In this document: positions 2,470-63,877 of the stretch, one piece after another | Layout: each line of letters starts with the position of its first letter | Numbering within the stretch: position 1 is the first letter of the stretch | Assembly: GCA_964458715.1 (NCBI GenBank) | Contig: CAYWJP010000001.1 | Coordinates: forward strand, 2,022 to 66,021 | Direction: 5' to 3' | DNA from: an uncultured Bdellovibrionales bacterium | GTDB taxonomy: Bacteria > Patescibacteriota > Minisyncoccia > Moranbacterales > DUUL01 | DNA: 64,000 nt | Notes under the pieces: generated by a model | What the model was told of the DNA's origin: nothing | Seen by the model: the letters and a program-made list of their open reading frames with translations, nothing else | Database searches by the model: none | Position numbers and translations under genes: made by a program

Positions 2470-2620
2470 CCACTGCCCACCAACTCTTGCAAATTTTAAT
2501 TTATACTTGCTTCAAAAAGTTCAGTGATACTATGACATCACTTCACTTTTTTTACCATCGTCTAAATTAAAATTTACCGTGACTTATGAGTAGTGGCTAA
2601 TTGAAAATGATATAAATAAA

Positions 2621-4555: not shown

Positions 4556-4557
4556 TT

Positions 4558-4953
4558 ATGAATAAAAATATTGCCATTTTAATAGTCTTAATTCTAACTT
4601 TTTTAACTTCTTACTTTTTATATTGGAAAGGAGAATTAGCCCTAGAGGATGCTGCTAAGGATTTTACTGTTTTAGCCTTCGAAAATACCAGTTTAGTTTG
4701 TGATTATAATTCTTTAACTTTCTTTATCGAGAATAATCTAGAAGAAGAACTTCCCTATCAAATTTCCATCAGCGCCGATGATAAAACGCTAGAGACTCTA
4801 GCAGTTTCAGTTTTGGCTCAAAATAAAAAACTAATCCAACCTAAATCAGAAACGCTAGAATTTCTATGCGCTCAATCTCAAAAAATCAAATATGAAGTTA
4901 TGATTGAGAATAAAACAAATAAACAATCTATCTATAAACTAATCAATCCGTAA
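4558..4953 (+). CDS. Hypothetical protein with an N-terminal membrane anchor or signal
   Basis: 131 aa with an N-terminal hydrophobic helix. Its ATG overlaps the upstream stop (TAATTATG). Confidence 0.35.
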   Translation: MNKNIAILIVLILTFLTSYFLYWKGELALEDAAKDFTVLAFENTSLVCDYNSLTFFIENNLEEELPYQISISADDKTLETLAVSVLAQNKKLIQPKSETLEFLCAQSQKIKYEVMIENKTNKQSIYKLINP

Positions 4954-4957
4954 ACTT

Positions 4958-6115: not shown

Positions 6116-6119
6116 TCTA

Positions 6120-7613
6120 ATGTATAAAATAATTAAAAAGGGACCATTTCAAAATATAATGCAACCCAACGACTCGAAAAGCATTCCGGTTCATTTTAAT
6201 ATGAGCGATGAATTAATGCCGGGAGACGACAGTTATGAAAAATTATTGAATATCGCCAAAGACAAAAGAGTCTTTCATCATATTGCCGCCTTAACTGACA
6301 TTCATTCCAAACCTGGCCGAAAAAATCCAACTGGATCGGTAGTAGCGACCGAAAAAGAAATCCTCCCCCAGCTAACTGATTCAGCTCCTAACTGCGGAAT
6401 GCGTTTAATTAAAACGCCTTTTTTCAAAGGAGATCTTTCCGATCAACAATTGGATGATTTATTTAAAGAATACACCAGAACAATTCCTACCAGGACTTAT
6501 TTTGGCACTTATTTCTCCCATAAAGATATTCTGGAGATCTCGAAACGAGGCTCTGAACCCGTGCTAGAGCGATTTGATAAAAGCAAAAAAGAACTAGACA
6601 ACACCATGATGCGAGGAAATATGTTTGGTAATCAAAAAGTCACCAATCAAGAACTTTTTGAGTCTATTCCTTCTCTATTTTTTAGAATTGCCCAACTTCG
6701 CTTGGGAATTTTAGGAGAAGCTGGTAACCACTTCTTGGACTTGCTTTTAGTTGATGATATTATAGACCAAAAAACTGCTCATAAATTAGGAATTCAAAAG
6801 GATCAGTATGTTTTTCTTCTTCATACTGGATCAGGAATGTTTGGACAATATTCTAGTTATTTCTATATGCCTAAAAAGAAAGAGCACCTCAGTCAAAAAT
6901 TTATAAATATTCTGAGCCGAGCCACTTTTTTAAAAAAAGACATTGAATGGCACCAAATTTTACAGAAAAAACTACCTCTTTACGAAAATAGCGATGAACT
7001 TTGGGGAATAAAAGAAAATTCTGAATTATATAAACATTTTATGATTGCTAATCGAGCTTCGGCTAATCACGCTTTCGCCAATCGAACTTTGCTTCAAATT
7101 AAAATTGAACAAGGAATCGAAAAAATATTAGGGAAAAAACTGGAACTACCCATTGTCTATGATATGAGTCACATTACGGTAATGAAGGAAAATCATTACA
7201 ACAAGGATCTCTGGATCCACCGAAACGGCTCCGTCAGAGCTTTCGGTCCCAAAAGAATGAAAGGTATTAAAACCTATGAAGAAACTGGCGAACCAGTCTT
7301 CTTACCATCTTCAATGAGCACTCCGGTTTATCTCGGAGTAGGTACTGATGAAAATGAAACTACTTTCTTTTCTGCCCCGCACGGAACTGGGAAATCCAAA
7401 AATAAAACTTCGGAAGTACCCGTTGACAAAAACGCCTTAAAGACCAAAATGGAAAAAAGAAATGTTCGCCTTTACAACGCCAAATCTAAAGGAATTTTAG
7501 AACAAGATGCCTCCCATTATAAGGATGTAGAACCAGCAATTAAAGGAATGACTGAAAATGGGGTTATTAAACCAGTGGCTAAAATGCACCCCGTCTCAGT
7601 TTTAATGGCGTAG
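6120..7613 (+). CDS. rtcB: RtcB family RNA 3'-phosphate ligase
   Basis: All RtcB signature blocks are present: APNCGMRLIKT (Cys), EAGNHFLDLLLV (Asn-His), LLHTGSGMFGQ (His), ASANHAFANR, IVYDMSHI (His), HRNGSVRAF, PVFLPSSMSTPVYL, SAPHGTGKS (guanylylated His). The start is moved to the internal ATG at 6120 to avoid overlap with the upstream gene. Confidence 0.7.
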   Translation: MYKIIKKGPFQNIMQPNDSKSIPVHFNMSDELMPGDDSYEKLLNIAKDKRVFHHIAALTDIHSKPGRKNPTGSVVATEKEILPQLTDSAPNCGMRLIKTPFFKGDLSDQQLDDLFKEYTRTIPTRTYFGTYFSHKDILEISKRGSEPVLERFDKSKKELDNTMMRGNMFGNQKVTNQELFESIPSLFFRIAQLRLGILGEAGNHFLDLLLVDDIIDQKTAHKLGIQKDQYVFLLHTGSGMFGQYSSYFYMPKKKEHLSQKFINILSRATFLKKDIEWHQILQKKLPLYENSDELWGIKENSELYKHFMIANRASANHAFANRTLLQIKIEQGIEKILGKKLELPIVYDMSHITVMKENHYNKDLWIHRNGSVRAFGPKRMKGIKTYEETGEPVFLPSSMSTPVYLGVGTDENETTFFSAPHGTGKSKNKTSEVPVDKNALKTKMEKRNVRLYNAKSKGILEQDASHYKDVEPAIKGMTENGVIKPVAKMHPVSVLMA

Positions 7614-7658
7614 AACAAGTTAAAAAGTTTGAAAGTTTATAAAGTTAGAAAACAAGAT

Positions 7659-8267
7659 ATGAAACTAATAACAATTTCGGGATTAGACGGATGTGGAAAA
7701 ACCACCCAATTAGATTTGATTGAAAAAGAATTACAAAAAAATCATAAGGTGAAAAGATTTCATATGATTGGTTTTTCAATTGCCAACAAACTTATTAAAC
7801 AAAAAAAAGAGGCTAGAACTAGCAAAATTAAAGCCAAAACTAACGCCACCTGGGGAGCTATTTTAATGAGAAAAATTGCGATAGTAATTGATGTTTTTAG
7901 ATTTCGCTTATATTATTTGGTAAAATCTAGCGAACATAAAACTGACTATCTTATAATAGACCGCTATTTCTACGATCAAATAATTAATATTAAATATCTT
8001 GATAAGCAAAACGATTGGAAAAATAAACCTTTTTGGCAAAATTTTATCGAAAACCATTTAATCCAACCTAATTTAAAAATTTATTTAAAAATAACGCCTG
8101 AAAAAATTCTAGAGAGAAATGCTAAAATTGAACAAGGAAAACAATATCTCTTAGAAAAAAATGGATTGTACAATCATTTCTCTAAAAAATGGAAACTAAT
8201 CACCATCGACGGTAGTGGCAAGGAAAAAGAAATTCAACAGAAAATTAAAAAACAATTAAATGTCTAA
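7659..8267 (+). CDS. Thymidylate kinase-like P-loop nucleoside monophosphate kinase
   Basis: MKLITISGLDGCGKTTQ Walker A and IIDRYFYDQ resemble the dTMP kinase DRY/lid region. The track starts at a TTG at 7629; the ATG at 7659 is the preferred start. Confidence 0.55.
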   Translation: MKLITISGLDGCGKTTQLDLIEKELQKNHKVKRFHMIGFSIANKLIKQKKEARTSKIKAKTNATWGAILMRKIAIVIDVFRFRLYYLVKSSEHKTDYLIIDRYFYDQIINIKYLDKQNDWKNKPFWQNFIENHLIQPNLKIYLKITPEKILERNAKIEQGKQYLLEKNGLYNHFSKKWKLITIDGSGKEKEIQQKIKKQLNV

Positions 8268-9729
8268 TCTTTTTAAATCTTCAATTTTAATATCTTTATC
8301 CGAATTAGCTTTTAATTTTTCCGGGTATGTCACCCAAGCGCTAATTGGAAGAATGTTTACACCTGCTGAATATGGTCGTTTTAGCATTATAGTCACTTTT
8401 GCTACCATGATAATAGTTTTAATCGGCAGAGGAATACCAATTTCAACTAGTAAACATTTGAGTGAAATAAACAGAAAGGATTTTAATGGTCGTTACGCTA
8501 TCAAGAAAGCGGCCCTAACTATCCAAATTTTAATAATTGCAGTCATCTCTTTTGCTTATTTTATGTTAGCCTCTGTTTTTGCTAACATCCTAAAAGATCC
8601 TAGTTTGACTCCCTTATTTCAAATCTCTTCTTTGATTATTCCAACTTTTGCCCTGGCTAGTTTTTACGCTTATTATTTTACTGGAATTCAAGACTTTAAA
8701 AGATCTTCTACTTTAAAATTTCTACGATCAATTTTCAAAATAATTTGCATCGTCGGATTAGGTTATTTTTTCAAGTTAACTGGAGCTATTATCGGACAAG
8801 CATTAGCTCCCTTGCTAGTTTTCTTAAGTGGTTATTTGATGGATCCTTTTAATAAATTCAAACTAAAAAAACGAAAAGATTTCAAAAATGCTCCCGTTAA
8901 CATTGCTTTGATGAAAAAATTAAGTATTTTCGCTGGACCAATTGTAATCTTTATGCTTTTTTACGAATTCATGCTTTCAATGAACCTGTATTTCGTAAAA
9001 GCCCTTCTTGGTCAAGATGATTTAGTCGGAATTTACAGCGCTGCTTCTACGGTTAGTCGTATTCCTTATTATCTGTTTTTCTTTATGACGATTATCCTGT
9101 TACCAAAAATTTCCGAACTAATCACCAATAAGGAACACAATAAAACTAAAGAATTATTGGAAAAGGCTTTCAAGTATTTATTTATCACTTTAGTGCCCAT
9201 GACAGTTCTACTCTCATTGTTTTCCGAATCGGCTGTCCGTTTTTTCTACGGCAGTCGCTATACTTCGGCCGGTTCAATAATGAGTATTTTAATTTTTGGA
9301 TTTGCCTTTTTAACAGTTTTCTACATTATCACTTTTGTTTTAAATGGCGCTGGAAAAAACAAATTTCCCGTTTGGGCTTCAATAATCGGAACTATCCTAA
9401 ACGGAATTTTAAATTGGATACTTCTCAAAAGAATGGGCCTACCGGGATCAGCTATTGCCACTACCATAACGGCTTTCGTAATAATGATTTGGGCGCTTAT
9501 TTACTCTAACCAGAAAATTACTCATTTTATTAATATTTGGTCAATCATTAAATATTTATTAACAGGATTGTTTATATATCTTCTAGGGAGCCTGTTTTTC
9601 AGCCAAGGAAGATTTATTTTTATTTTATGGTCATTTCTATTGTTGATAATTTACTTCTTTATTATGATTCTTTTTAAAGAACTAAAAATCGACGATTGGA
9701 AATATTTAGTAAAATCTTTTAAGAAATAA
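8260..9729 (+). CDS. Wzx-like polysaccharide/oligosaccharide flippase (MOP superfamily)
   Basis: 489 aa with about 14 TM helices. Length, topology and position downstream of the GT genes fit a polysaccharide-biosynthesis flippase. Confidence 0.55.
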   Translation: MSNLFKSSILISLSELAFNFSGYVTQALIGRMFTPAEYGRFSIIVTFATMIIVLIGRGIPISTSKHLSEINRKDFNGRYAIKKAALTIQILIIAVISFAYFMLASVFANILKDPSLTPLFQISSLIIPTFALASFYAYYFTGIQDFKRSSTLKFLRSIFKIICIVGLGYFFKLTGAIIGQALAPLLVFLSGYLMDPFNKFKLKKRKDFKNAPVNIALMKKLSIFAGPIVIFMLFYEFMLSMNLYFVKALLGQDDLVGIYSAASTVSRIPYYLFFFMTIILLPKISELITNKEHNKTKELLEKAFKYLFITLVPMTVLLSLFSESAVRFFYGSRYTSAGSIMSILIFGFAFLTVFYIITFVLNGAGKNKFPVWASIIGTILNGILNWILLKRMGLPGSAIATTITAFVIMIWALIYSNQKITHFINIWSIIKYLLTGLFIYLLGSLFFSQGRFIFILWSFLLLIIYFFIMILFKELKIDDWKYLVKSFKK

Positions 9730-9793
9730 TTTTTAATTATCTTCTATTTGAGCTATAATAAAAATAATCAATTTTAATATTTCATAAAAACAA

Positions 9794-10837
9794 ATGCAAA
9801 AACATCCTCACTTTTTACTCTTTTTAATCATCCTGTCTGCCATCGGGACTTTCTTTGTAATGAAACCGTTTCTTTTATCAATTTTTCTAGCTTTTATTTT
9901 ATCCACCCTATTTAGTAAAACCAATAAAAAATTAGCCAAAAAATTAAATGGACACAAATCCTGGTCATCATTAATTATGTGTCTTTGGGTGATGCTAATT
10001 TTAATCATTCCATTTTTTATAATTACTGCGCTAATGATTTCTGAAGCGGATTCCCTAATCAAAGAAATGCAAAATAAAAATATTTCTTTTGACATTAGTA
10101 CCCTTAAAAATCTACCGATTGTGAATACTTTTAACTTAGATCAAACGTTACAATCGAACGAAGGAATCAGTCAAATAGCCAAGAGTACTCAAAATATCAG
10201 CAACTACCTATTCACCGCCATAAAAGCTGTTTATACCAGCGCTAGTAATTTTATTTTTATTTTAGTTGTTTGTTTTTTTGCTCTTTATTATTTTTTTAAA
10301 GACGGTGATTCAATTATCAAAAAAATAATGGATTTAAGTCCACTTCCTTCCAACCAAGAAAAAGAACTTTTTGAAAAATTTAACACTATGACTATTGCCA
10401 CCATTAAAGGAACTTTGATCATTGCCTTAATTCAAGGAATTTTAATGGGAATTACCTTTTGGATAGCCGGAGTTCAAGCTCCAACTCTATGGGGACTACT
10501 GACTGCTTTAATTTCGATTATTCCTCTGCTGGGCGCTTTTCTGATTTGGCTTCCGGTTGGTTTAGTTTTATTAGCTTTAAGCTATTATTGGCAAGGAATT
10601 TTTGTTCTAATTATAGGAGCGGTTATTATTAGTAGTATTGATAATTTTTTAAGACCGAAATTAATAGAGGGCCAAACTAGCCTACATCCATTATTAGTAT
10701 TTCTCGCCACAATTGGAGGAATTGTTTTTTTCGGGCCATTAGGTTTCGTAGTTGGACCAGTTTTGGTAACTTTATTAATATCATTATTAGAAATCTATCA
10801 AACGGGTCATGTTCAAAATCCCGTTCTTGAAAAATAA
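9794..10837 (+). CDS. AI-2E family transporter (PerM/YhhT-like)
   Basis: 8-TM protein with the characteristic C-terminal region LHPLLVFLATIGGIVFFGPLGFVVGPV. Confidence 0.65.
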   Translation: MQKHPHFLLFLIILSAIGTFFVMKPFLLSIFLAFILSTLFSKTNKKLAKKLNGHKSWSSLIMCLWVMLILIIPFFIITALMISEADSLIKEMQNKNISFDISTLKNLPIVNTFNLDQTLQSNEGISQIAKSTQNISNYLFTAIKAVYTSASNFIFILVVCFFALYYFFKDGDSIIKKIMDLSPLPSNQEKELFEKFNTMTIATIKGTLIIALIQGILMGITFWIAGVQAPTLWGLLTALISIIPLLGAFLIWLPVGLVLLALSYYWQGIFVLIIGAVIISSIDNFLRPKLIEGQTSLHPLLVFLATIGGIVFFGPLGFVVGPVLVTLLISLLEIYQTGHVQNPVLEK

Positions 10838-10856
10838 ATTATAAATAAAATAAATT

Positions 10857-11300
10857 ATGGAAATCAATTATTTATATATTCTAATCCCAGTTTTAGTCGG
10901 AGGAATAACTCAGATAACAAAATTTGCCATCTTCACCTACAGACACGGCTTACAATGGAAATATTTATTTGCTCACGGTCATATGCCTTCCACCCACAGT
11001 GCTTTCGTGGCTGCTTTGGTTATAACTGCTGGTCGCTCAGCCGGTTTTGGTAGTGGTGTCTTTTTGATCGCCTTCTCTCTTAGCATAATAATAATTGACG
11101 ACGCCTTAAGACTCCGAATGTACTTAGGTGACCAAGGCCGTTATCTAAATATGCTGATTGAAACCTTAAAAATGGACGCCAAGGAATTTCCCAAACTAAA
11201 AGAACGAGTTGGACACCGTTCTTCAGAAGTTTTAGTTGGAATAATTTATGGAATACTTTTGGCTAATTTATTCTTCTACCTTTTTTCAAAATTAAATTAA
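10857..11300 (+). CDS. Divergent PAP2 / YuiD family membrane protein
   Basis: GHMPSTHSAFVAALVITAG motif typical of the acid phosphatase/vanadium haloperoxidase-related (YuiD) family. Confidence 0.55.
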   Translation: MEINYLYILIPVLVGGITQITKFAIFTYRHGLQWKYLFAHGHMPSTHSAFVAALVITAGRSAGFGSGVFLIAFSLSIIIIDDALRLRMYLGDQGRYLNMLIETLKMDAKEFPKLKERVGHRSSEVLVGIIYGILLANLFFYLFSKLN

Positions 11301-11337
11301 ATCATTTAGAATATTTTTTTATCATTTCTGATTAAAT

Positions 11338-11781
11338 ATGCCAGAAAAAATTATAATCAAAAACGCCCCGATAGAAGACGTTGTATTTGTAAATTCAACA
11401 ATTACTGAATTTGATAAACCTTATAAAAAAGAATATTTTAAAGAAAGATATGAGGGTAAAGATAATTTAATAATCGTTGCTTATATCAGCAACAAACCTG
11501 TTGGTTATGTTGTTTGGTACAATCGAGATAATGATAATTCTTTCTATTGCTGGATGGCTGGTGTTAATCCCGAGTATAGACGTCTTGGTATTTTAAAAAA
11601 ATTAATGGATTATGGATTTAATTGGGCAAAAAATAAAGGTTATCAAAAAATAAAAATAAAAACGAGAAACAACCGACGTGAAATGCTTACATATTTAGTT
11701 AGATATGGCTTTCAATTTACAAATATAGTCCAATATCCAAATGTCGATGACAATAGAATCGAACTTGAAAAATCAACATAA
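11338..11781 (+). CDS. GNAT family N-acetyltransferase
   Basis: Motif A-like RRLGILKKLMDYGFNWAKNKGY in a 147 aa protein. Confidence 0.6.
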   Translation: MPEKIIIKNAPIEDVVFVNSTITEFDKPYKKEYFKERYEGKDNLIIVAYISNKPVGYVVWYNRDNDNSFYCWMAGVNPEYRRLGILKKLMDYGFNWAKNKGYQKIKIKTRNNRREMLTYLVRYGFQFTNIVQYPNVDDNRIELEKST

Positions 11782-14026: not shown

Positions 14027-14202
14027 TTTAAAAATATTATTATTCTAAATATTGTCAATATCCGCCTAGCACGACAGGGATTAGATATTTAAGTGTAGTT
14101 TGAGGAAAATTTAATCACGATTAAATCAGATTCTTCATCTCAATATTCTCTTAATATAACAGAAATCCTATATTTGAGCACAGTTGAAAAACACCAAGAA
14201 TT

Positions 14203-14310
14203 ATAAGTTTGAGTGCAATTCGAGGAAAAACCGGAGTTGTCGTCTGGGGCGTATGAATAATACAGCGAAGTCGACACGATGGTTTTAACAAAGAAGTGCG
14301 CCAAACTTAT
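14203..14310 (+). repeat. Family-1 structured intergenic repeat, copy A (a degenerate half-copy lies just upstream at about 14171-14200)
   Basis: Outer stem ATAAGTTTG/CAAACTTAT encloses the core TTTGAGTGCAATTCGAGG…GCGTATGAATAA…AACAAAGAAGTGCGCCAAAC. Ends 10 nt before the ruvA stop codon. Confidence 0.7.
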
Positions 14311-14319
14311 AGCTCTTGT

Positions 14320-14889
14320 CTATTGGCGCATGGATTTAAGGGCAAGCTTTATCCTTTCCGAAATATCTTCAATCCCACTTTCAACACTTTTCGACGCTTC
14401 CCTCGCCTCACTGATATTGTACCCCATTGACACCAAAGCTTCGATAACATCTTGATCACCTTGAGCAGTTTGTTGAATAGCAGCTGAAAAGTTTTTAATC
14501 TTATTCTGAAGCTCTAAAACTACTCTCTCGGCAATTTTCTTCCCAATTCCTGATACTTGAGTCAAAATACTTATATCACGATTAACAATAGCAGTTTTAA
14601 TCACATCCGGTGAGGCAATATTAAGAATATTCAAAGCTGCTTTTGGTCCAATCCCCGAGACTGAAATTAGCAACTCAAACAACTCCAATTCTCCTTGAGT
14701 TTCAAATCCAATTAACATTAGTTGGTCTTCTTTTACGTGAGTATGAATAAATAATTCCAAAATTTCCTGACTAGAAGCCTTACCAATAGTTGCTTCATTG
14801 CAAAAAACCTTATAACCCACGCCGTTAACGTCAACTACTAAATATCCCACTCCGAAATAATTCACTAATCCTTTTAATTTTCCAATCAT
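14320..14889 (-). CDS. ruvA: Holliday junction DNA helicase RuvA
   Basis: OB-fold N-terminus MIGKLKG, two helix-hairpin-helix motifs (GIGPKAA, GIGKKIAER), C-terminal domain III. Confidence 0.8.
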   Translation of the reverse strand: MIGKLKGLVNYFGVGYLVVDVNGVGYKVFCNEATIGKASSQEILELFIHTHVKEDQLMLIGFETQGELELFELLISVSGIGPKAALNILNIASPDVIKTAIVNRDISILTQVSGIGKKIAERVVLELQNKIKNFSAAIQQTAQGDQDVIEALVSMGYNISEAREASKSVESGIEDISERIKLALKSMRQ

Positions 14890-15031: not shown

Positions 15032-15117
15032 CATTGTGTTTATAATATCATTATCTTTACAAATTTTCCAGACCGTGCTAATATTGTGCAATAAACTATT
15101 AAATTAAGTTAAAAATT

Positions 15118-15387
15118 ATGCCAATATTAGACGCCGCCAAAAAATACGTGAAAGTAACTGCTAGAAAAAACGCTTTCAATAAAAAAACCAAACTTACAAT
15201 GAAAAACGCTATTCGAAAAGTAAGCGATGCTATTCTAGTTAAAGATGTTACTGGAGCTGAAAAATTATTCAAATCCGCTCAACAAGCCATCGACAAAGCT
15301 ATGAAAAAAGGAATTCTAAAGAAAAACACTGCTGCTCGAAGAAAATCAGTTTTAGTCAAAAAAATTGTCGCTTTGAAAAGCAAATAG
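15118..15387 (+). CDS. rpsT: 30S ribosomal protein S20
   Basis: 89 aa basic helical protein with an S20-like N-terminus (AKKYVKVTARKNAFNKK). Followed by a bidirectional terminator. Confidence 0.7.
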   Translation: MPILDAAKKYVKVTARKNAFNKKTKLTMKNAIRKVSDAILVKDVTGAEKLFKSAQQAIDKAMKKGILKKNTAARRKSVLVKKIVALKSK

Positions 15388-23669: not shown

Positions 23670-23858
23670 TATTGTTTAATTTAAAATTAAATTAAAAAAT
23701 TTCAAAGCTCAAATTATTTCAAATTGTTCCAAATAAAATTCAAAATCTAAAATTCGAATGACAAAATTTAGATTTTGAAAATTTTAATTTTAATCATTGG
23801 CGCTTATTTGATATTTGTAATTTTAAATTTGTGATTTACTTATAAAAAACTTTGTTTT

Positions 23859-25946: not shown

Positions 25947-25986
25947 TTCTGATTATTTAATTATTGTAAAATTAACCACTCAATAT

Positions 25987-26130
25987 TAGAAATTTATTAT
26001 TTGAGCAAAGTTCAAGGAAAAACCGAGCAATGCAACGCAATTTACTAAATTGGTAAATGAAGTAAATCGTGGAGGTGGCGCCTGCCCGCCTTTGGCGGGA
26101 CAAAGAAATTTGCCAAATAATAAATTTCTA
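25987..26130 (+). repeat. Family-1 structured intergenic repeat, copy B (with an internal insertion)
   Basis: 22-23 bp outer stem TAGAAATTTATTATTTGAGCAAA/TTTGCCAAATAATAAATTTCTA. Core TTTGAGCAAAGTTCAAGG…GACAAAGAAATTTGCCAAAT. Its terminal CTA is the complement of the upstream gene's TAG stop. Confidence 0.7.
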
Positions 26131-26445
26131 GCCTTCATACAAGTCTAAGACTTCGTCAAACGAAATAGGATCCCTTTTAAAAACATTACAAGCTTCCTCA
26201 TAGTCTAAGTCAGTTAAAATCCCCAAAGTAACGATATTATCATTATTTTGAAGACCTTTGCTAATAACTGCCAAAGAAGCACTGCGACAAAAATTACAGT
26301 TAACATGAACTAACATTGCATCTTTCTTGTTTTGAACAATTTTAATACTCTGTTTGCCGTATTTTCTACCGCAAATAGAACACTTCATCAAAAGATTAAC
26401 TTCATTCATAAGCTTGATATTAACAATTATTCCCCCTTTAGTCAA
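26128..26445 (-). CDS. Hypothetical Cys-rich (zinc-ribbon-like) protein
   Basis: CSICGRKYGK ... HVNCNFC pairs. The stop codon is part of the terminal stem of a family-1 repeat. Confidence 0.35.
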   Translation of the reverse strand: MTKGGIIVNIKLMNEVNLLMKCSICGRKYGKQSIKIVQNKKDAMLVHVNCNFCRSASLAVISKGLQNNDNIVTLGILTDLDYEEACNVFKRDPISFDEVLDLYEG

Positions 26446-27798: not shown

Positions 27799-27852
27799 AA
27801 AATTTTGAATTTTGAATTTTGAATTTCGATTCAATTTTCAATGATTTAATTC
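27799..27852. repeat. AT-rich heptamer-repeat module (opposite orientation) upstream of murG
   Basis: AAAATTTTGAATTTTGAATTTTGAATTTCGATTCAATTTTCAATGATTTAATTC is the reverse complement of the dcw-type module. Confidence 0.55.
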
Positions 27853-28147
27853 CCGCCTACTCGCCTCGATTCGACGAAGCGGGCCTGCAGGCAGATTCAA
27901 TGACCTAATTTTTTAAAATCATCTTTAAGCGACGTTTGTCATTAAATGGTGAATAAGAAAATTCTTCAAAAATAGTTTTTTTCTCAACAAAACGGTCTAA
28001 TGAGTTATCCACCCTGTATAAATAGCACTTCGTAATTTAACAGGGTAAAGAATATCTCCGCTAAAGGCGGACACAGTTTTGCACCCTAAAAACAATAAAA
28101 TAACCCCTTTCGAGGTTATTTTTGAATTTATATATAAAACACGTGGA

Positions 28148-28260
28148 CTTGGGAGGTTGAGTACAATTCGAGGAGAAGTTGAGTACCGAGCGAGATGGAC
28201 TTAATGGTCCATTGAGCGAGTAACGGAAACTTCGACAAAGAAATCTACCAAACTCTCAAG
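28148..28260 (+). repeat. Family-1 structured intergenic repeat, copy C
   Basis: Core TTGAGTACAATTCGAGG…GAGCGAGATG-GGAC..GTCC hairpin…CGACAAAGAAATCTACCAAAC. Imperfect outer stem. Ends 12 nt before the tuf stop. Confidence 0.65.
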
Positions 28261-28272
28261 TCTTAAATAGTT

Positions 28273-29466
28273 TTATTTGGTAATTTTAGTAAGAACACCA
28301 GCTCCTACGGTTTTGCCTCCTTCTCTAATAGCAAATCTCATTCCATCTTCCATTGCCACCGGAGCTCCTAATTTAATGTTCAAACTAACGGTATCCCCAG
28401 GCATTACCATCTCCACTCCTTCTGGCAAAATAACTTCACCAGTTACATCAGTAGTTCGAATGTAAAATTGAGGTTTATACCCTTTAAAGAAAGGAGTATG
28501 TCGTCCGCCTTCTTCTTTAGTCAAAATATAAACTTCACCTTCGAATTCGGTGTGAGGAGTAATACTTCCTGTTTTAGCTAAAACTTGACCTCGTTCAATT
28601 TCTTCTTTTTTGGTTCCTCGAAGAAGAATTCCGGCATTATCTCCGGCTTCACCTCGATCTAATGTTTTATTAAACATTTCGATTCCAGTAACGACTGATT
28701 TAGCGGTTGCTTTAATTCCAATAATTTCGATTTCATCTCCAACATTAACAACTCCTCGTTCGATTCGTCCAGTAACTACAGTTCCTCGACCTTCAATTGA
28801 GAAAATATCTTCGATTGGCAATAAAAATGGTTTATCAACATCCCTTTTTGGTTCTGGAATATTTTCATCAAGAGCATCCATTAATTCCATAATTGGTTTA
28901 ATGGCCTCATCATCTTTACTGGTAGCTTCTAAAGCTTTCAAGGCTGAACCTTTAATAACAATAGCATTTTCACCATCATATTTATATTGAGTAAGAAGTT
29001 CTCGAACTTCTTCTTCTACTAAATCAATCAGTTCCTCGTCATCAACCATATCAACTTTATTCAAGAAAACTACAATTTGAGGGACACCTACTTGGTAAGC
29101 CAATAAAATGTGCTCTCGAGTTTGTGGCATAGGACCATCAGTAGCAGAAACCACTAAAACAGCTCCGTCCATTTGAGCAGCGCCAGTGATCATATTTTTA
29201 ATATAATCAGCATGTCCTGGACAATCAACGTGAGCATAATGTCGCTTATCAGTTTCGTACTCAACATGAGCAGTCGCAATTGTAATTCCTCGTTCTCTTT
29301 CTTCTGGAGCTTTATCAATCTCTCCTACAGATTTACTTGAAGCCATTTTTCCCATTAAAGTCATGGAATGTAAAATAGCCGCCGTTAAAGTAGTTTTACC
29401 ATGATCAACATGACCAATAGTTCCTACATTTACATGGGTTTTACCCCGTTCAAATTTTTCACTCAT
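28273..29466 (-). CDS. tuf: Elongation factor Tu
   Basis: [19 protein letters not shown] GTPase motifs, 397 aa. Confidence 0.97.
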
Positions 29467-29747
29467 AACAACTTTTTTATTATTTCAAAGGATTATCCAC
29501 CCAAGAAATAATTATTAATTTTATTAAACTTATTCTTTTTATTATAATCAGGAAACTATTTTAATATAGTATCCCTACAATAAAACATCATTAGAATATT
29601 ACCAGAAATTAGCTATTTGTCAAACAGACAAAGTGAGAAAGTCTATAAAGTTAAAAGTCAGAAAGTATTCGATACTTGTACTCTTGCACTTTTAAAAAGA
29701 TCTGTCTTTTTATACTTTATACTTAATACTTACAGCTTAATACTTTT

Positions 29748-31835
29748 TTAAACTTCTCCGTCCTTAATTTTCTGAGCAACACTAATTGGCACTTCCGAAT
29801 AATGATCAAATTCCATTGAATAATTAGCTCTTCCTTGAGTCATAGATCTTAACTGGGTGGAATATCCAAATAAAGAAGCTAACGGGACTTCAGCGTGAAT
29901 TATCTTATTTTTAATTCTCTCATCACCTTGATCTTCCATTTCTTTAATTTGCCCTCGTTTAGCGTTCAAATCTCCCACTACGTCTCCCATAAACTCTTCT
30001 GGAGTGATTACTTCAACTTTCATAATTGGTTCCAAAATCACAGGACCGGCATTCCGACAACCCTCCTTAAAAGCCATTGAACTAGCAATTTTAAAGGCCC
30101 CTTCAGATGAATCTACATCGTGAAAAGAACCATCGAAAACCGTGACCACAATATCAACCATTGGATAACCAGCCTGAACCCCTTTAGCTATAGCTCCTTC
30201 AACTCCTTTTTTAATAGCCGGAATATACTCGCTAGGAATAACCCCACCCTTAATTTCATTCTTAAATTCAAAACCAGCACCTTCTTCGGCAGGTTCAACT
30301 TTCAACCAACAATGACCATATTGACCTCGACCACCAGATTGTCTGATGTATTTCCCCTCGGCTTCGGCTGGTTTTCGAATAGTCTCTCGATAAGCTACTT
30401 GAGGTTGACCAATATTAGCTTCAACTTTAAATTCTCTACGCATCCGATCCACAATAATATCAAGATGTAATTCACCCATTCCGGAAATAATAGTCTGTGA
30501 AGTTTCTTCATCGGTCCGAACTGTAAAAGTCGGATCTTCTTCAGCCAATTTCTTCAAAGCAATCGCCATTTTTTCTTGATCAACTTTAGTTTTTGGTTCA
30601 ATCGAAATAGAGATAACTGTCTCAGGAAATTTAATATTTTCTAAAACAATTTGCTCTTTCTCATCACAAAGAGTATCGCCAGTAGTAGTATCTTTCATTC
30701 CTACTAAAGCTCCGATTCCGCCTGCGTAAATTTCTTCGATTTCTTCTCTATTATTAGCATGCATTTGAAGAATTCGTCCAATTCGTTCTTTCTTGCCTTT
30801 AGTAGAATTATGAACATAAGAACCGGCTTTTAATGTTCCAGAATAAACCCGGAAAAAAACTAATTGACCCACATAAGGATCAGTAGCCACCTTAAAGGCC
30901 AAAGCCGAGAAAGGTTCATCATCCAAAGCTTTTCGAGTAACTTTAACTTCTTCATTATCTACTTCGCAACCTTCTACATCAGAGATATCAGCTGGCGAAG
31001 GAAGGTAATCAACTACCGCATCTAAAACTTTCTGAACTCCTTTATTTTGAAGAGCGGTTCCAGTTAGAACTGGTTGAATTTCTCCAGTAATAGTTCCTTT
31101 TCGAAGAGCCCTTTTAATTTGTTCGTTAGTAACTTCCCCGCCTTCTAAATAAACCTCCAATAATTCATCATCTAATTCGGCTACTCTTTCAATCATTTTG
31201 TCTCTCCACTCTTGAGCTTTTTCTTTTAATTCTTCTGGAATTTCTTTTTCTTCTACCACTTCTCCCATATCGCCAGAAAAAATGTAAGCTTTCATTGTAA
31301 TTAAATCAATAATGCCTTGATGTTCGCCTTCTTCTCCGATTGGCAATTGAATCGCCACTGCATTCGAAGATAATCGAACATGAATAGACTCTAATGATCT
31401 TTCAAAACTAGCCCCATCTTTATCAATTTTATTAATAAAGCAGATTCTAGGCACTTTATATTTGTCTGCTTGTCGCCAAACAGTTTCAGATTGAGGCTCT
31501 ACTCCTTCTTTTCCATCAAAAATAACTACTCCACCGTCTAAGACTCGCAAAGCACGTTCTACTTCTACTGTAAAATCAACATGTCCTGGAGTATCAATAA
31601 TATTAATTTGATTTTCCTTCCAAAAGCAAGTAGTTGCAGCAGAAGTAATCGTAATTCCTCGTTCTCGTTCTTGCTCCATCCAATCCATAACAGCAGCTCC
31701 CTCATGAACTTCTCCGATTTTGTGAGAAATTCCAGTATAAAATAAAACTCTCTCAGTAACAGTAGTTTTACCAGCATCAATGTGAGCAATTATTCCAATG
31801 TTTCTATTTTTTTCAATAGGATATTTCCTAGCCAT
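29748..31835 (-). CDS. fusA: Elongation factor G
   Basis: [21 protein letters not shown] motifs and five-domain length (695 aa). Confidence 0.97.
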
Positions 31836-31970
31836 ATACTTAAAATTATATTTTATATACTTATATATTTTTTATAATGTAACTCATCTACCGATAGAAC
31901 CTGAATAAATTTAAAAAATTAAACAAAGCTTTTTATTTAGATCGTCTTTTAAATTAACCTCTTGAAAGCA

Positions 31971-32094
31971 ACAGAAATTAAATGTTTGAGTGCAGTTCGA
32001 GGCAAATTTTCAATTGCGTATGAGATGTGCTGAAATGGCACGTTGAAAAGCAACTGAAAATTTAACAAAGAAATGTACCAAACATTTAATTTCT
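31971..32094 (+). repeat. Family-1 structured intergenic repeat, copy D (best preserved)
   Basis: Perfect 17-bp outer stem CAGAAATTAAATGTTTG/CAAACATTTAATTTCTG. Core TTTGAGTGCAGTTCGAGG…GCGTATGAGATG-GTGC..GCAC hairpin…AACAAAGAAATGTACCAAAC. Lies between the rpsG stop and the fusA 5' UTR. Confidence 0.8.
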
Positions 32095-32099
32095 GACAT

Positions 32100-32567
32100 T
32101 TAGGCGAAGTGGGCAAAAGCTTTATTGGCCTCAGCCATTCGATGTGTATCTTCTCGTTTTTTCATAGCTGCTCCTTTTTTCTCAGCCGCATCCATCAATT
32201 CATCAGCTAATCGAATTGCCATTTTTTTTCCTTTTTTATTTTTGATAGAATCTTTAATCCAACGCATAGCTAAAGTAGTTCTTTTAATGCCAATAACCGG
32301 AACTGGAACCTGGTAATTAGCGCCACCGATTCTTCGTCCTTTTAATTCCATCAAAGGAGAAACATTTTTAATAGCTTGTTCAAAAACATTTAAACCGCCC
32401 CGATTAGTTCTTTTATGAATTTCATCAAAAGCATCATAAATGATTTTTTCAGCAACCGTTCTTTTTCCTTTTACTAATAAGTGGCCCACGAATCGACCTA
32501 CTAAAAGTGAATCATAAACAGAATCTGGCAGCCAATTTTTTTTGTAAATTTTATTCTTTCTGGACAT
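32100..32567 (-). CDS. rpsG: 30S ribosomal protein S7
   Basis: The S7 fold begins at MSRKNKIYKK...PDSVYDSLLV. The track ORF begins at an upstream GTG; the internal ATG at 32567 is preferred. Confidence 0.9.
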   Translation of the reverse strand: MSRKNKIYKKNWLPDSVYDSLLVGRFVGHLLVKGKRTVAEKIIYDAFDEIHKRTNRGGLNVFEQAIKNVSPLMELKGRRIGGANYQVPVPVIGIKRTTLAMRWIKDSIKNKKGKKMAIRLADELMDAAEKKGAAMKKREDTHRMAEANKAFAHFA

Positions 32568-32690
32568 GTTATTTAAATTTCTTAATATAATTTCTTGTTT
32601 ATAAATAAACACTCAACAACTAACATTCAACCTCCATTCAACTCTCAACTTCAAAACATTCAACTCCAGCAAAACTCATATTACGCAATA

Positions 32691-32813
32691 CAGAAATTAA
32701 ATATTCGAGTGCAGTTCGAGGCGAAATTAAAAATTTTATTGAGACGCACTAAATTGGTGCGGCGAAATAGAATTTTTGATTTCAACAAAGAAATGTACCG
32801 AATAGTTAATTTT
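32691..32813 (+). repeat. Family-1 structured intergenic repeat, copy E
   Basis: Same 5' end CAGAAATTAAAT, but the stem is changed compensatorily (ATTCG/CGAAT versus GTTTG/CAAAC in copy D). Internal hairpin GCGCAC..GTGCG. Lies between the rpsL stop and rpsG. Confidence 0.8.
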
Positions 32814-32817
32814 AAAC

Positions 32818-33234
32818 CTATTGTTTTTTAGGACGTTTAGTTCCATACCTAGATCTACTCTTAATTCGATTTTCAACACCAGCCGCATCCAAAACACCCC
32901 GAACTACTTGGTATCGAACACCAGGAAGATCTGGAGTACGACCACCTCTGATTACTACAATTGAATGTTCTTGCAAATTGTGCCCAACTCCTGGAATATA
33001 AGCAGTAACTTCCTTTCCGTTAGTAAGTCTAACTCTAGCAATCTTCCGAAGAGCAGAGTTTGGTTTTTTAGGACTAGTTGTACCAATTTTTATACACACC
33101 CCTCGCTTAAAGCAAGACGGATAATAAACTGGTTTATTCTTGATAGAATTAAAACCAAAATCCAAAGCAGTGGTTTTAGATTTTTTGACTACTTTTTTTC
33201 TGGGATTTTTAATAAGCTGGTTAATGGTCGGCAC
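32818..33234 (-). CDS. rpsL: 30S ribosomal protein S12
   Basis: MPTINQLIK ... [10 protein letters not shown] signature. Confidence 0.95.
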
Positions 33235-33432
33235 GTTTTTTTTAAAATTAATGGTTTATAAATTTATAATCCTCAAAATTTTAGACAATTACTAACAAAA
33301 AGCCAAACAAAACAATATTGTCTAGCGACATATTAACTTTTTTTAATTCTACACAAAGAGAAGCGCTGTGTCAATACCTCTCCTAGAAATTATCTAGGAT
33401 TTCGCATTTCTCTAAAATGCTTAAATTATAAA

Positions 33433-40050: not shown

Positions 40051-40141
40051 TGAATGTCTGAATTTTTAAAACTCCGTTTTAGTTTTAAAATTAAATCATT
40101 TGAAATTGAATCAAAATTCTAAATTCGAAATTCTAAATTTC
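40051..40141. repeat. AT-rich heptamer-repeat module (dcw type) between ftsL and ftsI
   Basis: GAATTTTTAAAACTCCGTTTTAGTTTTAAAATTAAATCATTTGAAATTGAATC followed by (AAAATTC/TAAATTC/GAAATTC) tandem heptamers. The same module occurs at 41584-41665 and 42186-42290. Confidence 0.6.
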
Positions 40142-40146
40142 TTAAT

Positions 40147-40524
40147 TTATTCAGTCATCATCGCCATCTCATCGCTTTTTTCAATTTCGACAAAACTAAC
40201 CTGATCAGGGCTTACTAAATTTAATCTTTCTCTTTCATTTTCAAAATGATAACTAGATTTTAACTGAGCTATCTGAATTTCCAAAGACTCGTTTTTATCT
40301 CTTAATTCTTCTAATAATTGTTCTTTGCTGTTAATCTCCTGCCCCATAGTCGCTAATTGATTTATCTGAAAAATATAACCCAGACTAGAAACTACTACCA
40401 TCATAAACAAACTCGAAAATATTAATTTAAGATTAAAAATTTGCGAAATATTTCTGGACTTCTTGCTTTTAGACTGTTGAGTACTAAAAGTTTGGCAATT
40501 TTTAACTAATAGTGATTTACTCAT
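40147..40524 (-). CDS. ftsL: FtsL/DivIC-like septum formation initiator (single TM plus coiled coil)
   Basis: 125 aa with one TM helix followed by a leucine-zipper-like coiled coil. Canonical position between rsmH and ftsI. Confidence 0.45.
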   Translation of the reverse strand: MSKSLLVKNCQTFSTQQSKSKKSRNISQIFNLKLIFSSLFMMVVVSSLGYIFQINQLATMGQEINSKEQLLEELRDKNESLEIQIAQLKSSYHFENERERLNLVSPDQVSFVEIEKSDEMAMMTE

Positions 40525-41583: not shown

Positions 41584-41665
41584 CTGAATTTTTAATTTAA
41601 AAATTAAATCATTCAAAATTCGAAATTGATTCAAAATTCAGAATTCAAAATTCAAAATTTTAGTA
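41584..41665. repeat. AT-rich heptamer-repeat module upstream of rsmH
   Basis: AATTAAATCATTCAAAATTCGAAATTGATTCAAAATTCAGAATTCAAAATTCAAAATTTT; heptamer array GAATTCA AAATTCA AAATTTT. Confidence 0.6.
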
Positions 41666-41672
41666 TTTATTT

Positions 41673-42107
41673 TTAATAAATACCTAATCGTCCTAACTGC
41701 TCCGCAATTTTGTCTTGATCCTTCTCCGCCCCACTCTTATATTTATCCCAAACCCCTTCATCCCAAAGCTCCAATCGATTAAATAATCCGGCAACTGTCA
41801 CCGCTTTTTTCAATTTGGCATAATCTTTCAAATAATCCGGCACCACAATTCTGCCCTGAGAATCCAAATCCAAATCAATCGCTCCGGCTAACATTAAACG
41901 AACAAAACTTCGAGTAGACTTTTCTCCAACTGGCATATTCCCTAATTTCTCAGCAATTTTTTCCCATTCTTTCATCGGATAAACAAATAGACATTGATCC
42001 AATCCCCGAGTCACTACTACTCTCCCTTTAAAATCACCCCGAAACTTGGCTGGTAGCGCCAACCGTCTCTTGCTATCTATTGAATGTTTGTATTCTCCGA
42101 TGAACAT
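41673..42107 (-). CDS. mraZ: Transcriptional regulator MraZ
   Basis: MFIGEYKHSIDSKRRLALPAKFR and a second DxxxR repeat. Confidence 0.9.
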   Translation of the reverse strand: MFIGEYKHSIDSKRRLALPAKFRGDFKGRVVVTRGLDQCLFVYPMKEWEKIAEKLGNMPVGEKSTRSFVRLMLAGAIDLDLDSQGRIVVPDYLKDYAKLKKAVTVAGLFNRLELWDEGVWDKYKSGAEKDQDKIAEQLGRLGIY

Positions 42108-42185: not shown

Positions 42186-42290
42186 GAATGAATTTTTAAA
42201 ACTCCATTTTAGTTTTAAAATTAAAAAATTAAATCATTCAAAATTGAATCAAAATTCGAAATTCGAAATTCGAAATTTACTCTAAATAAT
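42186..42290. promoter_or_regulatory. AT-rich heptamer-repeat module upstream of mraZ (candidate operator/promoter region)
   Basis: GAATTTTTAAAACTCCATTTTAGTTTTAAAATTAAAAAATTAAATCATTCAAAATTGAATCAAAATTCGAAATTCGAAATTCGAAATTT. Contains the 10-bp inverted repeat TTTTAAAACT/AGTTTTAAAA and four tandem CGAAATT heptamers, 80-180 nt upstream of the mraZ start. Confidence 0.45.
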
Positions 42291-42733
42291 CCCTTTATAT
42301 AAAATGAGCTTTAAGTATAAACAAAACCCATAATCCCAACAGCCTCATTTTTCTTTCCCCACTTTTCACCACGCAATACCATTTTAAACCACCAGTCAAC
42401 CCTTGTCAAACATTTCTCTCCATTTTTCCAATTTTCCCTAAAAACTAATCAAAAAAATGGCTTATTAATGACATTCGCGACTGCGTCCGCCCTTGGCGGA
42501 ACACACCATTTAATTTCATATCCTGTTGAGTTATACACAATTTGTTAACAGTTCTTTTAAATTAAAATTTAAAAGAAGATTTAGGATTTAAGAACTGCTT
42601 CCGACTTGCCTACTGACCTTTTTCGTCGAATCAAGACGAACAGGCAGGCTTTAAAATCTCCAAATATCTCTTATTTAAAATAAAAACAGGGTTATCGATA
42701 TTGTCAACAACCCCGTCTCTTAATATACTTTCA

Positions 42734-45780: not shown

Positions 45781-45821
45781 ATATACAAAATACGATTAAA
45801 ACTCTTGGGGCTATTTGAGGT

Positions 45822-45931
45822 TTATGAGTTTGAGTAAAGTTCAAGGAAAATCCGAGTAGCGTATGAGATGTACTTGATGGTACATCAAAAAGCAACGGAG
45901 GATTTGACAAAGAAATTTGACAAACTCGTAA
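45822..45931 (+). repeat. Family-1 structured intergenic repeat, copy F
   Basis: Outer stem TTATGAGTTTGAG/GACAAACTCGTAA. Core TTTGAGTAAAGTTCAAGG…GCGTATGAGATG-GTAC..GTAC hairpin…GACAAAGAAATTTGACAAAC. Ends 4 nt before the stop of the 45936 gene. Confidence 0.75.
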
Positions 45932-45935
45932 GCCG

Positions 45936-46256
45936 CTACCTAAGCCCTAGTTGATTTTTAAGCTGGTCAGCCTCTTGTTTGGTCATTTGACCGGACTTAA
46001 CCGATTCGTCTAATTGTTTCAGAATTTTATCTTTCTCTTTCAAAATATTTTGCGGATTCATCATTTTCCGCATTGCTTCTTCTCGTTTAGATTGAGGCAA
46101 TTTCTTAAAAATTTTCAGAGCCCAACGCTCTTTTCTAGACAACTTTGAATCATCAACCTTTTCCAACATTTCATCCATTTTACCCATCATACCATCCACT
46201 TTTGGATTCTTAGATTGTTCATCATCATTTTTTTTACCAAAATTGAAAAATCCCAT
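45936..46256 (-). CDS. Hypothetical K/E-rich protein (106 aa)
   Basis: Low-complexity charged helical protein. Followed by a family-1 repeat. Confidence 0.35.
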   Translation of the reverse strand: MGFFNFGKKNDDEQSKNPKVDGMMGKMDEMLEKVDDSKLSRKERWALKIFKKLPQSKREEAMRKMMNPQNILKEKDKILKQLDESVKSGQMTKQEADQLKNQLGLR

Positions 46257-59291: not shown

Positions 59292-59348
59292 AAAACAAGA
59301 TAATCACAAATATTAAATTAATTTAAAAAACTTCTGAATCTGTATGTA

Positions 59349-59415
59349 ATTTGAGGAAGATTCGATTCGCCGCGGCAAAGGAAAACCTGACAAAGAAGTG
59401 TGCCAAATTTGAAAG
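59349..59415 (+). repeat. Family-1 repeat, degenerate short copy G
   Basis: Retains TTTGAGGAAGATTCGA…TGACAAAGAAGTGTGCCAAAT. Lies 12 nt before the stop of the DnaQ-like gene. Confidence 0.4.
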
Positions 59416-59426
59416 TTTTGCCAATC

Positions 59427-60170
59427 TTATTTTAAATAGTGTTTTAAGGTAAATATCCAATCCTCGTCCGTTCCCTCTTCCTCTTTTGTTTTTTTCAACC
59501 AATTTAAGTACTGTCGATCTTTTTGCACAATATCCTCAACTCTCTCTCCAGTATATTTCCCAAAAGGAAATTTTTTAATTAGGACTGGATTAGATGAAAT
59601 ATCAATCATCCGACCGATGATTTCTTCTTCTGAGGCCTTTGGTGCTTTTTCTTTAGCAACCTTTAATAAATGATTAAAAATCGCTTCCAGGACTATCACA
59701 TCGCCTTCAGCGCTATGAGGGGCGACTTCAACGTCAACTTCATAATAATATCGTAGAAATTGCAGATTATATTCAGGAATTTCTTGTTCAGAATCTAAAT
59801 AACGAGCTAATCGCAAAGTACAAATAGATTGAGAGGTTTTTAAATCCTCGTTGCTTAACATCGCAATATCAAATTTAGCATTGTGAGCCACTAAAATATT
59901 ATCCGGCAAAATCTTTTCCAAGTTTTTGGCAAATTTACTCCCTTGAAAAGCCTCCTCCTTCTCTACTGTTTTATTGGTAATATGAGTAATGCTCATCGCT
60001 TTGACAGAAATAGGGATAGGTGGTTTGAAATTCTTGACTTCAATTTTTCCTTCATCCGCCGTAGCCTTGGCGAAAACGGATCTTTTTCTATAAGCCACTT
60101 GACAAAGCCGATCTTTTTCCAAATCATTCCCCGTTGTTTCCGTATCTAAAAATATTAATTTCTTTTTCAT
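59427..60170 (-). CDS. DEDDh 3'-5' exonuclease (DnaQ/epsilon-like) with a C-terminal extension
   Basis: Exo I LIFLDTETTGND and Exo III HNAKFDIAML motifs. Confidence 0.7.
   Translation of the reverse strand: MKKKLIFLDTETTGNDLEKDRLCQVAYRKRSVFAKATADEGKIEVKNFKPPIPISVKAMSITHITNKTVEKEEAFQGSKFAKNLEKILPDNILVAHNAKFDIAMLSNEDLKTSQSICTLRLARYLDSEQEIPEYNLQFLRYYYEVDVEVAPHSAEGDVIVLEAIFNHLLKVAKEKAPKASEEEIIGRMIDISSNPVLIKKFPFGKYTGERVEDIVQKDRQYLNWLKKTKEEEGTDEDWIFTLKHYLK

Positions 60171-63789: not shown

Positions 63790-63877
<88 letters not shown>

Follow-up and report, generated by a model that had tools for sequence, protein, structure and literature searches.

Co-transcribed palindromic MITEs, or miniature inverted-repeat transposable elements, form a known kind of bacterial repeat. 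ERIC is a MITE of ~127 bp with TA at its termini that is co-transcribed and has an orientation-dependent effect on the decay of upstream mRNA, and the Correia (NEMIS) element of Neisseria is a co-transcribed MITE of 104-157 bp (PMC3184786). Here we describe a family of long hairpin repeats in a 64-kb stretch of DNA (hereafter the window, in whose numbering coordinates are given) from a bacterium of the Patescibacteria, or Candidate Phyla Radiation (CPR), in which three copies lie in the str operon (rpsL-rpsG-fusA-tuf). We think it likely that these repeats are copies of a non-autonomous MITE of ~128 bp that colonised one sub-lineage of Patescibacteria. Three traits of a MITE were found here: short, noncoding, dispersed copies; terminal inverted repeats (TIRs) that bound them; and insertion polymorphism among related genomes. 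The kind is thus known, but the family is previously undescribed (literature searches returned no prior description of such a family in CPR/Patescibacteria), and two traits are unusual for such a MITE: a position abutting stop codons and a pronounced strand asymmetry.

By description, the known elements nearest to it in architecture and behavior are ERIC and Correia. It resembles ERIC in its near-equal size, its single long imperfect hairpin, its TIRs and TA ends, and its location in transcribed intergenic regions and 3' gene ends; the likeness is one of description, and ERIC belongs to Enterobacteriaceae whereas the element belongs to Patescibacteria. Unlike ERIC, it sits tighter against its genes, its stem base either including the stop codon or lying 0-8 nt from it; it folds with a strong asymmetry between strands; and its conserved core lies in mid-stem, not only at the ends. 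Correia elements, in the work of De Gregorio et al., are said to be flanked by TA and processed by RNase III. The element is likewise bounded by TIRs, flanked by TA, and present in many copies near genes, as transcribed hairpins that may affect mRNA stability. Correia TIRs, however, carry promoter and IHF elements and their termini are well conserved, with none such here, and sequence similarity between the two is not evident.

A third comparison is with REPs (repetitive extragenic palindromic sequences), which PMC3733652 and PMC3337134 describe as G+C-rich palindromes of 20-40 nt tagged GTAG or CGTC, a REPIN being a doublet. Many REPs lie no more than 15 nt from a stop codon, a position in which they stall ribosomes (PMC12306157). 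That REPs evolve by gene conversion is a long-standing proposal (Higgins 1988, in the reference list of the same paper). Our family shares with REPs the presence of palindromic repeats in 3' untranslated regions near stop codons and the vertical persistence of its populations. It differs in being AT-rich, with arms (TTTGGYNNATTTCTTTGT and CCTCGAAYTNNRCTCAAA) that are not palindromes and are untagged, so that membership of the REP/REPIN group fails on arm structure and tags. A gene for the REP-associated transposase RAYT was not identified, the open reading frames (ORFs) of the window not having been scanned for it.

Element copies in the window and in related genomes

The window contains seven full copies of the element, all on the minus strand, three in the str operon and four elsewhere (Table 1); they were located with a covariance model (CM R1) trained on the window copies. 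The str-operon copies are near full length and lie 0-12 nt 3' of the rpsL, rpsG, and tuf stop codons. An earlier note on this DNA had placed repeats after these genes, and model matches of 117-129 bits agree with its coordinates within a few bases; its view of the repeats as structured, situated inside the transcription unit, and inflating the spacers is also borne out. That a repeat follows every gene of the operon, as it stated, is true of rpsL, rpsG, and tuf but not of fusA, which has no copy. The rpsL-rpsG spacer measures 250 nt, rather than about 210, when the S7 start is taken as the ATG at 32567, and the rpsG-fusA spacer 264 nt, close to the 260 given. The rpsL and rpsG copies do share an identical first 12-mer (CAGAAATTAAAT, plus strand), and the compensatory differences between their stems are real. 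The family is not confined to the str operon, and nothing in the data marks it as a regulator dedicated to that operon: Four further window copies follow other genes, and the family occurs after many unrelated housekeeping genes.

Within the long hairpin, two blocks are conserved (UUUGGYNNAUUUCUUUGU and CCUCGAAYUNNRCUCAAA), and the outer and inner stems are variable. The two core motifs occur five times each in the window, against 0.2-0.5 expected by chance. In the copy that ends the 105-aa ORF, an added GC-rich hairpin (CCCGCCAAAGGCGGG, 26099..26085, minus strand) is nested in the core, just after UUCUUUGU. Scanned whole at the gathering threshold, the window has a single Rfam match, a tRNA, and none at the elements; in E-value mode, positions 31900-32900 yield chance miRNA and lncRNA matches only, far under threshold.

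Table 1. Positions of the str operon genes, element copies, signals, and other features in the window
Feature	Position	Strand	Context	Evidence or remark
rpsL (S12)	32818..33234	-		Pfam Ribosom_S12_S23 in called genes of identical contigs
rpsG (S7), 155 aa	32100..32567	-		Pfam Ribosomal_S7; start is ATG at 32567; all homologues 155 aa
fusA (EF-G)	29748..31835	-	No element 3' of the gene in this genome	
tuf (EF-Tu)	28273..29466	-		
Element after rpsL	32688..32818	-	Directly 3' of stop TAG 32820-32818	CM R1, 116.9 bits
Element after rpsG	31969..32098	-	Directly 3' of stop TAA 32102-32100	CM R1, 128.8 bits
Element after tuf	28140..28268	-	4-12 nt 3' of stop, upstream of operon terminator	CM R1, 117.6 bits
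Element	14192..14321	-	Abuts stop of 189-aa ORF (14320..14889)	CM R1, 111.7 bits
Decayed 3' half-copy (TTCAACTGTGCTCAAATATAGGATTTCTG)	14160..14188	-	Just 3' of full copy 14192..14321	Read from sequence
Element	25984..26133	-	5' TAG is stop of 105-aa ORF	CM R1, 104.4 bits
Element	45813..45940	-	Overlaps stop of 106-aa ORF (45936..46256)	CM R1, 122.1 bits
Element, shortened	59323..59423	-	3 nt past stop of 247-aa ORF (59427..60170)	CM R1, 73.1 bits
Promoter-like site TTGACA-17-TAGAAT	33346..33374	-	Upstream of rpsL	11/12 consensus matches
Promoter-like site TTGACA-16-TAATAT (with TG)	29596..29623	-	fusA-tuf spacer	10/12 matches
Canonical intrinsic terminator	28097..28122	-	~20 nt downstream of tuf copy	11-bp stem and T-run
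fusA-tuf spacer, 281 nt	29467-29747	-	No element	AAGTAT-type short repeats
C-free, G/T-rich stretch	32608-32667	-	Between rpsL element and rpsG start	Degenerate GTTGAATG repeats (GTTGAATGTTTTGAAGTTGAGAGTTGAATGGAGGTTGAATGTTAGTTGTTGAGTG)
Second repeat family	41600-41690, 40080-40165, 42220-42300, 23720-23800, 27800-27850	-	Intergenic, right after several genes	
tRNA, 86 nt, long variable arm	63790-63875	+		Rfam, 55 bits; sole Rfam match of the window

Of 185,579 species representatives, the one with the EF-G closest to that of the host is a Moraniibacteriota metagenome-assembled genome, at 72% identity. The element was not found in 37 CPR str loci from the GTDB species-representative collection. 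A motif scan of metagenome contigs gave 101 matching stretches; most counts reported here are based on 109 distinct copies, the model matches in the first 80 metagenome loci, and a further ~30 copies in the remaining loci give ~140 in total in related metagenome contigs. Viral contigs showed no match to the element, and a phage origin was rejected on that ground. The copies are ~100-176 nt long, typically ~128 nt, contain no ORF, and are dispersed, with flanks that cannot be aligned in non-orthologous pairs. In their consensus structure, 93.7% of cells are paired and 30 of the 33 pairs have changes on both sides. Compensatory cells number 813, compared with 270 in shuffles, and slid controls keep only between about a tenth and a fifth of the observed covariation score.

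Two more distant loci gave weaker matches. L099, whose S7 and EF-G are 51% and 60% identical to those of the window, has weak model matches at 4740-4868 and 4296-4371 (43 and 38 bits), of which one lies 35 nt past its rpsG. The family, or a relative of it, may extend outside the sub-lineage examined here. The Uhrbacteria str-region locus L022 has a 31-bit match at 15079-15207, a long hairpin without the conserved core, which may be an unrelated palindromic repeat of another CPR lineage.

The copies are found at the 3' ends of genes. We counted a copy as stop-abutting when an ORF of 60 or more codons on the same strand has its stop codon ending no more than 20 nt from the element's 5' end: 68 of the 109 copies abut such a stop, and eight have an other-strand ORF at the opposite end. 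The copies in opposite orientation that abut stops are eight of about 12-15. Counted from the UUCUUUG anchor, the stop codon is 19-27 nt upstream, at the stem base or within it, and at least one of its bases is paired in the stem in 36 of 59 cases. TAG makes up 51% of stops at elements versus 24% in the background, an excess consistent with the element's own terminal consensus, TAG-RAMTT. The upstream genes are varied housekeeping genes (encoding S10, S7, S12, EF-Tu, GyrB, ArgRS, MraZ, NusG, MraY, SecA, SecY, and DnaB), and those upstream of elements (rpsL, rpsG, tuf, rpsJ, gyrB, secA, secY, dnaB, nusG, and others) stand in conserved synteny.

The mobile unit and its turnover in sister operons

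The whole hairpin, including its outer stem, is the mobile unit. L137, L157, and L145, three copies on two contigs of one sample, share 98% identity over 170-176 nt and have unrelated flanks. Each begins with GGACTTACGGGC and ends with GCCCGTAAGTCC, a 14-bp perfect TIR, and TA stands on both sides in all three. The same three copies carry a 48-nt GC-rich hairpin inserted between the TIR and TTTGG. The element's TIRs can be written GGAMTTACG...CGTAAKTCC between flanking TAs, and the family-wide terminal consensus is YA-RRAM...KTYY-TR, with T at 50%-69% and A at 48%-54% of the flanking positions. The outer stems of the window copies (CAGAAATTAAATG and TAGAAATTTATTA) are AT-decayed forms of this young-subfamily TIR. 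A strict check for TA duplication on the copies embedded in stop codons had a mixed outcome.

In an all-versus-all blastn comparison, the similarity of paralogues at first seemed limited to the inner ~98 nt (TTTGG to CTCAAA, up to 97% identity), with outer stems that differ. This prompted the idea of an outer stem specific to each locus, arising by insertion into a pre-existing palindrome or by inverted target duplication, which is ruled out because the TIR of the young subfamily is the outer stem and because orthologous sites swap the inner part. AT-rich hairpins elsewhere in the window, considered as "empty" target palindromes, belong to a different repeat family. The window rpsL copy is 84% identical to the rpsG copy of L186, compared with 63%-69% to other rpsL-site copies, and the rpsL and rpsG copies of L185 are 95% identical to each other. 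The rpsG copies of the window and L186 are 70% identical, with outer stems retained and inner parts different; relative to the window rpsG copy, the orthologous copy in L093 has two compensatory stem changes. The central ~60-100 nt therefore do not follow the ancestry of the site, and the outer stems do. We read this pattern as exchange of inner segments between copies by ectopic gene conversion, with the conserved core as its anchor, in addition to occasional transposition.

We fetched str operons at graded distance through S7 homologues (identities are those of S7 to the window). The rpsL site is filled in all six genomes with S7 identity of at least 81%: the window, L185 (94%), L093 (92%), L186 (88%), L187 (86%), and L188 (81%). 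L187 lacks the rpsG copy, and L188 has a degenerate one; after fusA, a copy is present only in L187 and, in inverted orientation, in L185; and the tuf site is filled in five of the six, each copy upstream of a separate canonical terminator. At the tuf sites of the sisters, truncated older copies, tandem copies, and second terminators are stacked behind. Decayed remnants, including 3' half-copies, are found in L186, L188, L093, and L185 and at 14160-14188 of the window. In L189-L192 (72%-76%), the rpsL-rpsG spacers are 14-95 nt and hold no copy. Because occupancy varies and these relatives are empty, the elements are neither universal nor brand-new, and their population turns over: Copies have been gained, lost, stacked, and decayed at gene 3' ends. 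The comparison of str spacing in sister genomes that the earlier note called for thus divides, with the rpsL copy kept throughout the closer group and the other sites varying.

Two of the sister loci have further peculiarities. The 70-nt rpsG-fusA spacer of L187 (6469-6540) holds a 14-bp hairpin followed by GTTTTT and resembles a terminator or attenuator. In L185, the inverted copy (9026-9154, minus strand of the locus) lies in the tuf 5' untranslated region, between the promoter-like TTGACA of tuf and the start of the gene; since it is inverted, the better-folding strand would be in the mRNA.

Other repeats are also present in the window (Table 1). A second, unrelated intergenic family consists of short tandem units of the GAATTTT/TTTGAATT type followed by a conserved GATTCAATTTCAAATGATTTAATTTT tail. 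The degenerate repeat stretch before rpsG is not conserved in sister loci. The fusA-tuf spacer contains a long-range inverted repeat (AGACAGA...TCTGTCT) in addition to the tuf promoter-like site, and parts of it are conserved in L185.

Strand asymmetry of folding

We refer to the mRNA strand as the sense strand; its complement is the plus strand of the window. The complement is the more stable strand in 103 of the 109 copies and the sense strand in six (mean minimum free energy, -43.2 and -33.1 kcal/mol, respectively), and DNA energy parameters give the same direction of asymmetry. Dinucleotide-shuffle z-scores, computed on 55 copies, have a median of -6.25 for the complement and -4.47 for the sense strand, the complement being lower in 43 of 55 (P = 2e-5). 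In silico folding with RNAalifold, which had been proposed as a check, supports a structure but places the better fold on the strand complementary to the mRNA: -37.7 kcal/mol with 38 pairs, compared with -20.1 kcal/mol and 33 pairs for the sense strand. Among the str-operon copies, the one after rpsL folds at -27.4 kcal/mol as sense RNA (z = -5.9) and at -46.3 kcal/mol as the complement (z = -8.5); the corresponding energies after rpsG are -40.1 and -52.2 kcal/mol, and the z-scores after tuf are -2.7 and -6.1.

The base pairs themselves are asymmetric. At paired columns, the ratio of G·U to A·C is 199:74 on the complement and 68:120 on the sense strand. Pair 23-109 reads on the complement as UG (46), CG (35), or UA (17), and its UG state is a C·A mismatch on the mRNA. 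The conserved internal loops are purine-rich on the complement, with tandem G·A (UUC-GA-G-GA-AAAAUC over GGUUUU-GA-C-AAA-GAA), and on the mRNA strand become U·C and C·U. Note that on its sense strand the element is rich in C (24%, against 15% G), although the sense strand of the genome is rich in G (GC skew, about 0.25), so mutation bias should have given the opposite asymmetry. In long DNA palindromes, compensatory changes can also come from templated correction (quasipalindrome mutagenesis).

These data bear on whether the family is a dedicated cis-acting mRNA structure, selected by the host to set the output of neighboring cistrons and spread by duplication, which would act as a barrier to 3' exonucleases, a processing site, or a sensor of translation termination. 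The copies always lie in transcribed 3' regions, often with the stop codon paired in the stem base, and the orientation bias of 68:8, the sense RNA's advantage over shuffled sequence, the filled rpsL sites of the sisters, and the compensatory variation of orthologous stems all agree with such a role. There are precedents, too, in the stalling of ribosomes by REPs (PMC12306157) and the effect of ERIC on upstream mRNA decay (PMC3184786). The wobble and stability signature on the complement nevertheless argues against a selected mRNA structure: The sense strand has more A·C mismatches than G·U pairs and has pyrimidine loops, and the sense fold of the tuf copy barely exceeds its shuffles. Sites are also gained and lost among the sisters, with the plain hairpin and T-run of L187 in place of its rpsG copy; the upstream genes share no theme past housekeeping; and opposite-orientation copies abut stops as well. 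We regard this explanation as rather unlikely.

The attC sites of integrons, in the 2005 study of Bouvier et al. and later work, are reportedly imperfect palindromes of 57-141 nt (~123-126 nt for VCR) that lie directly after ORF stops in one orientation, with the mRNA-complementary strand folding productively. Their likeness to the element, in stop-abutting position and bottom-strand folding, is striking but no more than a lead. An alternative is that the functional form is the mRNA-complementary strand, either as a single-stranded DNA substrate of recombination or transposition, like the bottom strand of attC/VCR or the hairpins of IS200/REP, or as an antisense RNA. The greater stability of this strand speaks for it, as do covariation along the classical path C-G / U·G / U-A, seen for example at pair 23-109, the conserved purine loops, and the location mostly on the leading-strand template by a GC-skew proxy; the placement of ~60-140-nt imperfect palindromes right after ORF stops in one orientation, with inner parts exchanged, is attC-like. 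The attC cores RYYYAAC/GTTRRRY are absent, however: The element ends in TAGRAMTT...AAKTYCTA, and its inner boundary is TTTGG...CTCAAA. Its neighbors are syntenic essential core genes and not mobile cassettes, there is no intI/attI context, and the young copies, unlike attC, move as TIR-bounded units. By its core motifs and gene context, the element is not an integron attC site. Neither a recombinase nor an HUH transposase was identified, and a sigma-70-like promoter placed for antisense transcription scores at least 10 in just two of 102 cases, many spacers being too short for one; an antisense small RNA gene was rejected because no promoter was found. We consider a functional complementary strand improbable, and there is only a slim chance of the specific version in which it docks at the stop codons of core genes and swaps an inner cassette, as an attC/VCR analogue on CPR housekeeping operons.

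Read-through and the fate of insertions

The elements are co-transcribed with housekeeping genes and are not terminators. In the str operon, the only strong promoter-like sites are those upstream of rpsL and in front of tuf, and the TTGACA of the latter is conserved across sister loci. The order stop, element, terminator after tuf recurs in L093, L185, L186, and L188, while L187 has the terminator without an element. Across the family, 50-55 copies have co-directional genes on either side. For 17 of 50, only 18-46 nt separate the copy from the next start codon, which leaves no room for a promoter and requires read-through. A U-tract 3' of the hairpin was not found as a family feature on either strand: At least eight T in the 12 nt past the stem are seen in 4.8% of copies (4.7% for the opposite strand), and only eight of 104 copies have a terminator-like hairpin and its T-run starting within ~100 nt downstream. 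Since there is no U-tract, the elements must be transcribed through, and the terminator or attenuator reading is rejected for want of a U-tract on either strand.

The earlier note's internal attenuators fall with it, given the many copies 18-46 nt before the next start. There is still the thought that the elements are unconventional terminators or attenuators inside the operon, which would suit long stable hairpins right after genes and a tuf copy at the operon's end. We hold it to be extremely improbable, considering that eight or more U in the 12 nt past the stem are present in only about 5% of copies on either strand, that each tuf copy is followed by a separate canonical terminator, and that the operon-internal copies close to a start codon need read-through.

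If the family is a MITE, its distribution could be explained as follows. Copies would survive almost only between a stop codon and the ribosome-binding site of the next gene, which would be the sole harmless place for insertion in compact genomes. Insertions that put the strong hairpin in the mRNA would be purged, as they would obstruct ribosomes at the stop or be targets for RNase III, and such purging would leave an orientation bias of ~5-10:1. Strand asymmetry probably explains this bias. Transcription would then pass through the str-operon copies, giving imperfect hairpins whose base is at the stop codon. A regulatory effect on mRNA stability or cistron stoichiometry is possible; by analogy with ERIC, REP, and Correia, effects on 3'-exonuclease protection, translational uncoupling, or the ratios of S12, S7, and EF-G would be a by-product and would not account for the existence of the copies.

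Several observations weigh against the MITE interpretation. No filled and empty site pair with alignable flanks was found, so the TA could belong to the TIR instead of being a target duplication. In the loci examined, no autonomous partner was found, in the form of two TIRs 0.8-4 kb apart with a transposase-sized ORF between them. The occupied rpsL site in all six sisters, with stems that keep pairing through compensatory changes, could equally mean that the host needs the element. A cut-and-paste transposon alone leaves wobble-type covariation on one strand unexplained. Finally, in regions of lagging-strand genes, as judged by GC skew, orientation follows the gene in eight cases and the direction of replication in eight, a tie that leaves the mRNA-selection account of the orientation bias not proven. 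As to such regions in the window, gene orientation flips at ~11.78 kb (1-11781 vs. 11783-64000) with convergent genes, and the GC skew of the plus strand is about 0 over 1-12 kb and -0.2 to -0.3 beyond, which suggests that the first 12 kb consist of lagging-strand genes and are not a replication terminus.

The family has several implications. Genomes of Patescibacteria are usually viewed as streamlined and repeat-poor, and here a mobile repeat family has invaded even an operon as conserved as str and quadrupled its spacers. The covariance model and motif let annotators mask or label ~128-nt hairpins that otherwise resemble novel noncoding RNAs or terminators. The family also illustrates how a long palindrome, through compensatory changes, can pass for a selected mRNA structure, a reading that a strand-wise check of G·U against A·C corrects. 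If copies modulate mRNA decay or translational coupling, they would offer a natural handle on expression control in uncultivated CPR bacteria.

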